DNA from: a phage
DNA length: 64,000 bases
Strand: one strand, 5' to 3'
Sequence record: PZ445536.1
The notes beneath the pieces are model-generated. The model was not told the DNA's origin. It made no database searches and worked only from the letters and a program-made list of their open reading frames with translations. Positions 3,833 through 62,472 of the stretch are shown here, one piece after another (position 1 is the first letter of the stretch; every line of letters begins with the position of its first letter). The position numbers were made by a program, and so were the translations under genes.

Positions 3833-4108
3833 TTAAATTGCTTTGAATTCTGATGTCTGCGATTCAAAACGAATATCGCCTTTAATGACTAGCTCAGCAT
3901 CAAGACCGAATACGACAATGATATGCGCGGAACCTGGATACAGCGTAATGGCGATAGAATCAACCTGGTCTGGAAGCAAAGTGTTCAATACATGAGTCAC
4001 TTGAGCATGAATTCGAAGCTCAGCTGCGTTATCAAGCTTTTCAAACATATTATTAGCGATAATTTGGCTAAACACTACTTCTACGATTTTAGAATAAGTC
4101 GGAAACAT
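3833..4108 (-). CDS. hypothetical protein (91 aa)
   Basis: ORF in cd-pseT interval. Confidence 0.6.
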   Translation of the reverse strand: MFPTYSKIVEVVFSQIIANNMFEKLDNAAELRIHAQVTHVLNTLLPDQVDSIAITLYPGSAHIIVVFGLDAELVIKGDIRFESQTSEFKAI

Positions 4109-54028: not shown

Positions 54029-54546
54029 TAATAGCCTCTGTCTTGACGAGCGAAGTTTTCAGCATTTTTCAGATAATAAAGTTTAAATATTTCTTCAGCT
54101 GACATTCCAAGAGCAATAAATTTATTCATGAAAAAGTGAAATTGATCAATCAGTTCAAATTTAATTTCAAGTTGATCTTCAGGAGATAAATCTTGAATTT
54201 TCTTGGATTGCATTTCAGAATAACGTTTCTTCCAAGGTTTCCATACAGCAGAAGCTTCTTTTTCACCATTACTCATACCACCAAGAGAAGTATATAGTTC
54301 GCGAGTTTCATCTGCGATATAATCGTCTTGGTTTCGCAACCAAGCAAGAACTTCTCCTGCGGTTTCAAGTGAATCAGGATGACGATTTGTTTCTGGTTTA
54401 TCATTAGCCAAACGAATCTGTAAATGCCGCTGCATATCAAGCATAACCTGCAGTGGGTCAATATTGTGCATAATATTCTCAGCATATGCACGATTTGCTT
54501 TATCAACACCTTCGATCAAATGAGCACATTCATTAAAGTAAGCCAT
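54028..54546 (-). CDS. 56: gp56 dCTPase/dUTPase (MazG-like NTP pyrophosphatase)
   Basis: About 172 aa from MAYFNECAHLIEG; C-terminus ...FKLYYLKNAENFARQDRGY as recalled for T4 gp56; AAAGGAAAAATAATG RBS. Confidence 0.8.
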   Translation of the reverse strand: MAYFNECAHLIEGVDKANRAYAENIMHNIDPLQVMLDMQRHLQIRLANDKPETNRHPDSLETAGEVLAWLRNQDDYIADETRELYTSLGGMSNGEKEASAVWKPWKKRYSEMQSKKIQDLSPEDQLEIKFELIDQFHFFMNKFIALGMSAEEIFKLYYLKNAENFARQDRGY

Positions 54547-54617: not shown

Positions 54618-54818
54618 ATGGTACAAAAATTAATGGCACTTGTTAATGCCATAAAAGGTAATAAAAAACGTATAGCTTTTACTATTTCTGCTATGGTAGG
54701 AATTTTACTCTGGAACTTTATTCTATCACCTGTTGCAATTGCGCATGGTATTAATATTCCAGTAGTTACTCTTGATACATTTGTAGATTTAGCATTTGCT
54801 TTAGTTGGGTTGATTTAA
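54618..54818 (+). CDS. small hydrophobic protein on + strand (66 aa), uncertain
   Basis: ORF with strong AAGGAGG SD 5 nt upstream; two predicted TM segments; lies opposite to all neighbouring genes. Confidence 0.35.
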   Translation: MVQKLMALVNAIKGNKKRIAFTISAMVGILLWNFILSPVAIAHGINIPVVTLDTFVDLAFALVGLI

Positions 54819-59296: not shown

Positions 59297-59659
59297 TTAA
59301 AAGAATTTAAATTTTTTCTTTGACCTTTTATTAAATGCATCTTGCAGTTGCATTGTAATACATTTTTCTACATGAGGAGCTAACTCAGCTTTTCTTTCTT
59401 GGTCAAGAACAGCAAAGTCCATTACAACCTTTCCATCAACCCAATCCAGTTTAGTTACATACACTATATGCGTAGAACCATCTTCTAGTTTAATGACAAT
59501 CTCCTGGATAACATTTTCCATAGCAGATTTAATTATCTTAAGAGACTCATTAAAAAGACGTTCTTTTCTTTCTTCTTCCCCCTCCGAAGAGGGGGATTCA
59601 TCGATAATTTCTAGATCTAAATCTAAATCATCTTTATTCATTAAATTCTTCCATATCAC
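59297..59659 (-). CDS. 40: gp40 head vertex assembly chaperone (probable)
   Basis: About 115-120 aa ORF between 41 and uvsX as in T4; start uncertain. Confidence 0.6.
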   Translation of the reverse strand: MIWKNLMNKDDLDLDLEIIDESPSSEGEEERKERLFNESLKIIKSAMENVIQEIVIKLEDGSTHIVYVTKLDWVDGKVVMDFAVLDQERKAELAPHVEKCITMQLQDAFNKRSKKKFKFF

Positions 59660-60815
59660 TTAACTGTTCGAGGTCAGTTTCTAAATCAGCAGCTGATTTA
59701 CTTTTACTTTCTGGAGATTTAAATTTTTCAACCTTTGAGTTAATCAATTCATCAACTTCAGCTTCAACAATTTCATTACTATCAATAGCACCTAATTGAT
59801 AAGCACGTTTAATAGCATCTCTGAATGGTTGATGCTTAAATAAAGGACCCCAGAATGTAGTGCAGTTGGTATCTTTTGCACGCCAAGATTTTTCTTCGCG
59901 AATCATCTCGCCGGTTTCTTCGTCAAGAAATTCACGAGCATACCAGCCATTTTTAGGTTTTACCACGAATCCTAATTCTAGAGCCATATCTAACAATCCA
60001 GAATAAGGATCGATACCACCGTCAAATTTAACATCAATAAAGAATTTACTTTTTTCTTTAACGGTACGAGATTTTTCTACATTTAGAACAAATTGATACC
60101 CCTGAAGATCAGAACCATCTTTAATCTGACGCTTACCGATAATGAATACAGTATCAGCCGAATACATTACGCCTGTACCACCTGTCATCACGGTTTTACT
60201 AAACATTTCAATTGTTTCAATTGTATGGTTAACCGCAACACATGGAATATTTTTAATGCTAAAATAAGGAGTAACAATACGGAATAATGACTTCAGTGAT
60301 TTAGCACGAGTCATATCTGCCACAGATTTTTCATTCAAGGCATCTTCCGTTTCTTTCTTAGAAGCCATATTACCGATTGAGTCGATGAATACAATAACCT
60401 TTTCACCACGCTCAATAGCTTCAAGCTGGTTCACCATATCAATTTTCAGTTGTTCAACTGACTGAATCGGCGTATGAATTACTCGTTCCGGGTCAACTCC
60501 CATGGATCGCAAATAAGCTGGAGTAATACCAAATTCGCTATCATAGAATAGACAAACCGCGTCAGGATATTTGTTCAAATATGCCGCAACCATAGTCAAA
60601 GACATATTTGATTTAAAGTGTTTAGAAGGCCCTGCGAAAATAGTTAAACCAGACTGCATACCGCCATCAATCGCACCAGAAATAGCAATATTAAGCATTG
60701 GAATTTTTGTACGAATTACATCCTTTTCATTAAAGAATTTAGATGTAGTCAGTTCAGCAGTCATTTTAGAAGTGGAAGCTTTAATCAAACGGGATTTTAA
60801 ATCTGCAATAGACAT
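59634..60815 (-). CDS. uvsX: UvsX recombinase (RecA-like)
   Basis: 393 aa; Walker A GPSKHFKS; T4 UvsX. Confidence 0.93.
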   Translation of the reverse strand: MSIADLKSRLIKASTSKMTAELTTSKFFNEKDVIRTKIPMLNIAISGAIDGGMQSGLTIFAGPSKHFKSNMSLTMVAAYLNKYPDAVCLFYDSEFGITPAYLRSMGVDPERVIHTPIQSVEQLKIDMVNQLEAIERGEKVIVFIDSIGNMASKKETEDALNEKSVADMTRAKSLKSLFRIVTPYFSIKNIPCVAVNHTIETIEMFSKTVMTGGTGVMYSADTVFIIGKRQIKDGSDLQGYQFVLNVEKSRTVKEKSKFFIDVKFDGGIDPYSGLLDMALELGFVVKPKNGWYAREFLDEETGEMIREEKSWRAKDTNCTTFWGPLFKHQPFRDAIKRAYQLGAIDSNEIVEAEVDELINSKVEKFKSPESKSKSAADLETDLEQLSDMEEFNE

Positions 60816-60868
60816 TCATTTTTTCCATAGGCATCATTATATTTTCCTCACTGGTTAAAGATAGAGTA

Positions 60869-60894
60869 ATTATAACACAATAAATTTAGGCATT
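60869..60894 (-). promoter_or_regulatory. putative MotA-dependent middle promoter for uvsX (TGCCTAA-11-TATAAT)
   Basis: rc ttaggcatt 60886-60894; rc attata 60869-60874. Confidence 0.4.
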
Positions 60895-61741
60895 AATCAA
60901 CTGCTATTGGATGAATAGCATTAAACTTATGAAATGCTTCTGATTTTTCTTTACGAGAAACACACATGCGAAGAACCTTTAATGGCTCGTCTTCTTCACC
61001 CAACGATTTTCGTTTTTCAATATTAGAAGTTTTCCAACGAGCTTGCTCTGGAAACTCTCTATTGATTTGCTCAAGCGCTCTATTATGTTTAGAATTACTA
61101 CGAATTGAACTACACCCACCAGGAGCTTGCGCTTTACCTGATACAACCAGATATTTGAACAAGGCCAAATGCGGATAACCTTGATTAATTAAATTGAGAA
61201 ATGCATACATATCTTCGCACAAATCAATTTTTCCATACCCAATTTGTTCTGTCGTAAGTTTTCCAAGGTCATACCATGTATTCGTGAATCCATATGAATT
61301 TTCACGATAATTACCCCAAGATGAAGTAATTTTAAAAATTGGTAGACGAGCATGGTCATGATAATACCCACAATCCATGGCATCCTCAACATATTGAATC
61401 AATTCATAGAACTGTTCACGAGTCAATTGATTGACTTTATCTACACAGCGTCGATCATCTCTCTTTCGCATTGAACTCATACGAATAGTAGTATCATCAT
61501 CAATCATCCAAATTCGTTGACCTGCATACATATCAGTAATTGCTTTACGAGTACCAGCAATTCCGTTTACATCATCAGGAATAGTTATAATTTTAGCTCT
61601 AGACCCATAAGCATCATAATAAGCTTTTTCTTCGTGTTCACGCACTACAATATGCGGTTCATAATCAGTCGGAAACATATCAAGGGCAGAAACTGCCCCG
61701 ACACGTTGATAACTTGGAATTACGAATTGAATCATTTCCAC
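60893..61741 (-). CDS. putative GT-A-type glycosyltransferase at the beta-gt locus (possibly beta-glucosyl-HMC alpha-glucosyltransferase as in T2/T6)
   Basis: 282 aa with DxD-like IWMIDDDTTIR; shorter than T4 beta-gt (351 aa); located between uvsX and 42. Confidence 0.5.
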   Translation of the reverse strand: MEMIQFVIPSYQRVGAVSALDMFPTDYEPHIVVREHEEKAYYDAYGSRAKIITIPDDVNGIAGTRKAITDMYAGQRIWMIDDDTTIRMSSMRKRDDRRCVDKVNQLTREQFYELIQYVEDAMDCGYYHDHARLPIFKITSSWGNYRENSYGFTNTWYDLGKLTTEQIGYGKIDLCEDMYAFLNLINQGYPHLALFKYLVVSGKAQAPGGCSSIRSNSKHNRALEQINREFPEQARWKTSNIEKRKSLGEEDEPLKVLRMCVSRKEKSEAFHKFNAIHPIAVD

Positions 61742-62472
61742 TCACCGTTATAATCTTTTTTCACAATATGAGTTTCGCCAGTATTCCACCAATGATCAAC
61801 CAAGTAAAAATGACGAGAATATACATGAAGACTTCCGACATTCCATATAATAGAACCTGCTTTATACTGACGAGTTGAATCGCCTGCATTCAAATCAGAT
61901 ACTAATTTATCTAATACGTATTTTTGCCATGCATAATCATTACGGAATCCGAAGACCACGTCATTTGAGCGCATGCTTACTACCGCATTGACTTTCTTAT
62001 CACGAATCAGGTACTGTACTGTATTAGTACACATGAAATCTGACATACCATCTTTATTGTAGTCAAATTGCATGGATGGACGAGTATAAATCATGATACC
62101 ACGCCGAGAATCAGGATTTTGACCAAGTTCAGCTAAACACATATCATACTGGGCATAGTTATCTTCTGACCAAATAGCCCAACCATAATTCGAGTTAATT
62201 TCGCCTTTAGAAGATGCTACCTGCTGCCAAATCTTTGGTGTTTCACCTGGAATATCTTTAACAAACAAACTCTTAGATTTATACCATTCAAGTTCACGCT
62301 GAATGTATTCATCATTAAGAGCGCCAAAAATAAACGGTTCATCTGCTACAAATGATGCGCCAATAATTTCAATAGTTTTAACACCAGTTTTATCAACTAC
62401 GAAATCTTTTTCTTTTAATGCAAGCCCCAAATGAAGACGGATTTCTTCAACTGTCATAGAGTCACTAATCAT
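61732..62472 (-). CDS. 42: gp42 dCMP hydroxymethylase
   Basis: 246 aa (T4 gp42 length); thymidylate-synthase-like fold. Confidence 0.9.
   Translation of the reverse strand: MISDSMTVEEIRLHLGLALKEKDFVVDKTGVKTIEIIGASFVADEPFIFGALNDEYIQRELEWYKSKSLFVKDIPGETPKIWQQVASSKGEINSNYGWAIWSEDNYAQYDMCLAELGQNPDSRRGIMIYTRPSMQFDYNKDGMSDFMCTNTVQYLIRDKKVNAVVSMRSNDVVFGFRNDYAWQKYVLDKLVSDLNAGDSTRQYKAGSIIWNVGSLHVYSRHFYLVDHWWNTGETHIVKKDYNGEWK

Follow-up and report, generated by a model that had tools for sequence, protein, structure and literature searches.

A T2/T6-type ba-gt orthologue with a private G127D substitution between uvsX and gene 42 of a T4-like phage

Results

Gene arrangement and translation start

The window, the whole 64-kb stretch of phage DNA analysed here, carries between uvsX and gene 42 a minus-strand open reading frame that a six-frame scan delimits at 60893..61741, corresponding to 282 residues from a GTG codon and containing the sequence IWMIDDDTTIR. 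Its downstream neighbour is uvsX (RecA-like recombinase; 59634..60815, minus strand), separated from the stop codon by a 77-nt spacer, and its upstream neighbour is gene 42 (61732..62472, minus strand), encoding the dCMP hydroxymethylase that makes hm-dCMP and lies at the root of the modification pathway. The gene order is thus uvsX-ORF-42, as compared to uvsX-segA-b-gt-42 in T4.

The gene starts, with near certainty, at the ATG of position 61735, which lies two codons past the GTG and gives a protein of 280 rather than 282 residues. From this codon the coding sequence of ba-gt (also ggt), a T2/T6-type glucosyl-DNA beta-glucosyltransferase of the Pfam TAGT family (PF20691), spans 60893..61735 on the minus strand, with 280 codons followed by a TAA stop. 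The GTG start at 61741 was dropped on three grounds. First, as read from the sequence, the ATG (61735-61733) and the TGA stop of gene 42 (61734-61732) form an ATGA overlap at 61732..61735 (minus strand), an arrangement that is also present in the annotations of vB_Eco_CP and T2. Second, a putative Shine-Dalgarno-like hexamer, GGTGAG (61741..61746, minus strand), ends 5 nt before the ATG and overlaps the GTG. Third, the annotations of vB_Eco_CP and three T2 records give the gene as an 843-nt coding sequence from the equivalent ATG. The ATGA overlap furthermore suggests translational coupling of ba-gt with the dCMP hydroxymethylase gene. The initial annotation had described a 282-residue ORF at 60893-61741, in the place where T4 encodes its 351-residue beta-gt; the ORF and its position stand, with the T4 interval comprising segA as well as beta-gt, while the length is likely 280 residues from the ATG at 61735.

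A scan for promoters and terminators returned nothing above shuffle expectation. We note a terminator-like hairpin, GGGGCAGTTTCTGCCCT, with a T-rich tail at 61683-61699 (minus strand), inside codons 13-18 of ba-gt; as the number of terminator-like sites equals that expected from shuffled sequence, it is probably not meaningful.

No homologue of beta-gt, segA (by tblastn) or alpha-gt is detectable anywhere in the 64-kb window, the segF homing endonuclease gene is likewise absent, and dam is missing between genes 56 and 61 (spans noted, 60816-60892 and 54640-54814). In the closest relative, vB_Eco_CP, alpha-gt is present about 13 kb on from ba-gt, which corresponds to a position past the window end, and the presence of alpha-gt in this phage is consequently deduced from synteny with relatives. 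Two further features of the region were observed. The slot beside ba-gt sometimes carries segD or GIY-YIG endonuclease genes in other phages, as seen from tblastn matches, which suggests that the locus is a hotspot for mobile endonucleases. In addition, the product of gene 56 (dCTPase; 54031-54546, minus strand) shares only about 69% identity with its T4 counterpart. The neighbouring gene 61 (primase) reaches 99%, and this jump is a sharp mosaic boundary.

Family identity and distribution

The ORF protein matches PHROG 842, 'beta-glucosyl-HMC-alpha-glucosyltransferase', over residues 1-275 (E 6.9e-89), and Pfam PF20691, the TET-associated glycosyltransferase (TAGT) family, with 38.2 bits, above the gathering cut-off of 27.5 bits, residues 3-207 being aligned to profile positions 2-205 of 205. 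NCBIfam holds no model for the protein, and a PDB sequence search returned nothing meaningful (best E 1.3). At the DNA level, hundreds of Tequatrovirus genomes share 98-99% identity with the 2.1-kb locus; 475 of the matches are full-length, and in many the gene carries the annotation ba-gt. Among 50,697 phage records, tblastn places the protein in 689. Identity is at least 95% in 472 of these, and Klebsiella, Enterobacter and Salmonella phages form another group, with about 64%. Given the strength of the PHROG match and the number of tblastn matches, the ORF is no chance feature.

In T2 and T6, ggt is likewise flanked by uvsX and gene 42. Compared to T2, 277 of 280 residues are identical (three differences; 98.9%) in each of three independent records, and compared to the T6 reading frame 275 of 280 (five differences). 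Judged by sequence, the ORF is an orthologue of T2/T6 ba-gt (ggt) within the TAGT family, and its activity is one that we take to be EC 2.4.1.28. The legacy name is misleading, since the glucose that the enzyme attaches to alpha-glucosyl-hmC is beta-linked. With some 690 sequenced T4-like phages carrying it, the gene is an ordinary one.

Fold and active-site motifs

A first AlphaFold2 model, computed from a 10-sequence alignment, reached a pLDDT of 71.7 with region 126-132 disordered, and was replaced. A HMMER search of 1.84 billion representatives returned 324 matches at E <=0.001, from which an 89-sequence alignment was derived; the model calculated with it has a pLDDT of 94.8 and a pTM of 0.92. 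The predicted structure is a single Rossmann-like alpha/beta/alpha domain that matches solved GT-A structures.

The model and 142 family representatives together delineate the active site. R11 (codon at 61703..61705, minus strand) belongs to the IPSYxR motif, which lies near the N-terminus where beta-strand 1 ends. It is present in 139 of the 142 representatives (98%), the other three being gapped, and is invariant in the 89-sequence alignment (A3). D79-D80-D81 (61493..61501, minus strand), the DxD-type motif within IWMIDDDTTIR, directly follows strand 74-78 in the model; the three residues are conserved at 99, 100 and 94%, respectively, and invariant in alignment A2, and the motif is presumed to be the site for the divalent cation and the UDP-glucose diphosphate. 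E174-D175 (61211..61216, minus strand), the 'ED' motif in LCEDMY, is conserved at 83 and 100%, respectively, with D175 invariant in A3; in an inverting GT-A enzyme, this Asp would probably act as the catalytic base. Outside these motifs R63 (94%), G186 (96%), G206 and G207 (99 and 100%) and R212 (96%) are conserved among the same representatives. R11, the DDD triplet and the ED pair make up the R...DDD...ED signature named for phage GT-A DNA glycosyltransferases and the base-J glucosyltransferase (bioRxiv 10.1101/2023.12.21.572611).

The initial annotation had called the protein GT-A-like, with a DxD-like motif in IWMIDDDTTIR, and a candidate of the T2/T6 type. The first two calls are right in view of the signature, with the modelled fold and the conserved triplet behind the core strand pointing the same way, and the third is borne out by the identities to T2 and T6 and by the shared genomic position. 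Similarly, a comparison with the T2/T6 and T4 enzymes, proposed there as a check, returns a T2/T6 orthologue, and the PHROG and Pfam matches are to glycosyltransferases.

The shared slot between uvsX and gene 42 could alternatively mean that beta-gt has been replaced at the same locus by a functional analogue that places beta-glucose straight onto hmC. In sequence, however, the protein does not resemble T4 beta-gt (the best BLASTP match has an E of 2.3), its fold is GT-A as opposed to the GT-B fold of beta-gt, and relatives with ba-gt show no beta-glucosyl-mdC by HPLC/MS (PMC13390438). On the differing fold and the mass spectrometry data of the relatives this alternative was ruled out, its probability being close to nil.

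A private substitution at position 127

Codon 127 (61355..61357, minus strand) is GAC, encoding Asp, inside beta-strand 126-130 of the model. In all relatives examined, i.e. five IMG/VR loci, vB_Eco_CP, the three T2 records, T6 and P0001-P0011, the codon is GGC, encoding Gly, rendering G127D private to the window. Among the 142 representatives the position is occupied by Gly in 66, Val in 38, Cys in 15, Ile and Ala in seven each and Thr in two, and is never charged. A degenerate DNA pattern for the Asp allele gave no matches in IMG/VR, as compared to eight for the Gly control. The exact protein, in its 280- or its 282-residue form, has no public record, and among the 50,697 phage records there is no 100% tblastn match, the best being 99.6%.

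The substitution may be neutral or attenuating, or it may reflect a sequencing error, amounting to a single G-to-A change. With Asp 127 located in a core beta-strand, enzyme activity may be reduced, and the orthologue could then be a hypomorph or null, the DNA holding mostly alpha-glucosyl-hmC and bare hmC as in T2 or T6 delta-ba-gt. Gly 127 in every close relative, the lack of any charged residue at this position in the family and the absence of the D127 protein from public records are in agreement with such a loss, as is the location of the residue in a strand that is confidently modelled (mean pLDDT of 98 for the 10-residue block containing strand 126-130 in the 89-sequence model). A possible precedent is found in T2, where R11H affects an active-site arginine conserved at 98% and gentiobiosyl-hmC is only about 5%. 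However, the ORF is otherwise intact with every catalytic motif present, the occurrence of Val, Ile and Cys at position 127 in other family members indicates that a side chain fits, single substitutions in beta-strands are often tolerated, and if the G-to-A change is a sequencing error the real protein is wild type. Overall, we consider a hypomorph or null allele rather unlikely.

A TAGT-family enzyme with a specificity other than that of T2/T6 ba-gt, using another sugar donor or glycosylating hmC directly, was also contemplated. The family is functionally diverse, with many phages encoding a solitary TAGT homologue and neither alpha- nor beta-GT (PMC13216743), and various glycans are installed by phage GT-A enzymes (bioRxiv 10.1101/2023.12.21.572611). 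Nevertheless, the identity of 98.9% to T2, and of 99.3-99.6% to the proteins of phages in which gentiobiosyl-mdC was detected by mass spectrometry, makes a different specificity very unlikely, and the sole private difference, G127D, falls outside the conserved motifs.

Discussion

Proposed modification pathway

Gene identity, synteny, fold, motif conservation and the absence of beta-gt from the window are resolved in this analysis, and we propose with high confidence that the gene encodes the second DNA glucosyltransferase of Tequatrovirus, making gentiobiosyl-hmC after the action of gp42 and alpha-gt. In this pathway gp42, encoded directly upstream, would make hm-dCMP, which replaces dCMP in the phage DNA. 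Following replication, some two-thirds to three-quarters of the hmC would receive alpha-glucose through the action of alpha-gt. With UDP-glucose as donor, ba-gt would then extend this alpha-glucose by a further glucose in beta-1,6 linkage, yielding gentiobiosyl-hmC. R11 and D79-D80-D81 likely hold UDP-glucose through a divalent cation, and D175 of the ED motif would serve as the base for inverting transfer. Since a beta linkage is formed from UDP-alpha-glucose, ba-gt inverts configuration, in keeping with a GT2-like GT-A enzyme that has a DxD metal site and uses an Asp as base. With beta-gt missing, a fraction of hmC would stay bare and no beta-glucosyl-hmC would be formed, i.e. the pattern would be T6-like rather than T4-like. 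The prediction requires alpha-gt as the maker of the acceptor, since ba-gt adds to alpha-glucosyl-hmC, and we infer the activity of this G127D allele.

The fold, the genetics and the chemical product of the T2/T6-type gene have already been published. The T6 enzyme has been modelled as GT-A, sister to GT2, and the pairing of alpha-GT with TAGT is the common state in Tequatrovirus, the alpha-GT and beta-GT combination of T4 being present in 6 of 753 genomes (PMC13216743). Mass spectrometry of phage nucleosides had been put forward in the initial annotation as a check, and a published result exists for the nearest relatives: HPLC/MS of vB_Eco_CP, Solly and NR1 DNA detected about one-third 5-hmdC, about two-thirds alpha-gentiobiosyl-mdC and no beta-glucosyl-mdC, and the authors credit the second glucose to the TAGT gene syntenic with T4 beta-gt (PMC13390438). 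As these three phages encode proteins 99.3-99.6% identical to the one described here, their chemistry supports the gentiobiosyl pattern that the annotation had suggested, and that we predict for this phage.

Whether a T-even phage has gentiobiosyl-hmC, as T6 does, or only mono-glucosyl-hmC depends on this gene, and ba-gt goes along with the absence of beta-gt, leaving a fraction of hmC bare. Such differences affect sensitivity to several host defences, Brig1 targeting alpha-glucosyl-hmC and Brig3 bare hmC, with GmrSD and BrxU cleaving all forms. T6 delta-ba-gt, containing only alpha-glucosyl-hmC, is more sensitive to the Brig1 glycosylase (PMC11078745), and the BapA deglucosylase cannot remove glucose from gentiobiosyl-hmC (PMC13160076). 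Both observations are in agreement with the altered sensitivity to host glucose-specific restriction systems anticipated by the annotation, and would apply to this phage if its DNA is modified as predicted. Taken together, that earlier reading is supported, and it concerns a gene that was already known and is ordinary apart from G127D. Since the pattern is already on record for T6 and for phages almost identical to this one, the window is no more than a further example, and G127D is the loose end.

Gentiobiosyl-hmC amounts to about 5% in T2 as compared to about 72% in T6, and natural ba-gt alleles can thus evidently differ greatly in output. A more speculative view of G127D, which we hold to be rather improbable, is that it represents a natural attenuating or tuning mutation, that point changes in ba-gt govern how much hmC is mono- as opposed to di-glucosylated in wild Tequatrovirus populations, and that the DNA of this phage is T2-like despite the gene. 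If so, sensitivity to Brig1-like glycosylases, which target alpha-glucosyl-hmC, would be traded against other pressures, and R11H, a substitution shared by the three T2 records, may have the corresponding effect in T2.

Comparison with known systems

The T2/T6 beta-glucosyl-HMC-alpha-glucosyltransferase (ba-gt, ggt or g-gt) was reportedly cloned by Winkler and Ruger in 1993. The window shares with it the slot, the length of 280 residues, the ATGA overlap and the R...DDD...ED motifs, and differs in having Asp 127 in place of Gly and in lacking R11H and P251S of T2. The latter two substitutions are present together in all three independent T2 sequences (AP018813, MH751506 and LC348380), and R11H might explain the low gentiobiosyl-hmC content of T2 relative to T6; we found no paper stating so. 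The T6 record MH550421 has an amber codon at position 10 of ggt, a stop that is missing from the window allele. In this record (MH550421.1) CAA is changed to TAG by two base changes, at about 3951-3953 of the extracted locus and about 22950 of the record, and the gene is annotated with 261 residues from Met20, without beta-strand 1 and R11, which is odd given that T6 has the highest gentiobiosyl content. The stop may have arisen in a particular stock, or it may be an error.

vB_Eco_CP, Solly and NR1, Tequatrovirus members of the Durham Collection, are closer still, with proteins one to two residues apart from that of the window and 98.4-98.9% DNA identity across the 2.1-kb locus, and they too are without dam between genes 56 and 61. 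G127D sets the window apart from them, and their DNA chemistry has been measured, whereas the window is known from sequence.

T4 b-gt, the structure of which (GT-B) is PDB 1JG7, occupies the same slot, uses UDP-glucose as donor, is inverting (beta linkage) and modifies hmC in phage DNA. In contrast to the window protein, to which it has no sequence similarity, it is GT-B rather than GT-A, has 351 rather than 280 residues and uses as acceptor hmC itself instead of alpha-glucosyl-hmC. It is also adjoined by the segA homing endonuclease gene, which the window is without.

At a wider distance, the R...DDD...ED signature and the GT-A fold are common to the window protein and the TAGT family (PF20691) of phage GT-A DNA glycosyltransferases, kin to the kinetoplastid base-J glucosyltransferase. 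Compared to this family, the window enzyme is paired with a thymidylate-synthase-like dCMP hydroxymethylase and not with a TET/5mYOX dioxygenase, and ba-gt acts on a DNA-attached sugar rather than on the base (PMC11078745, PMC13216743).
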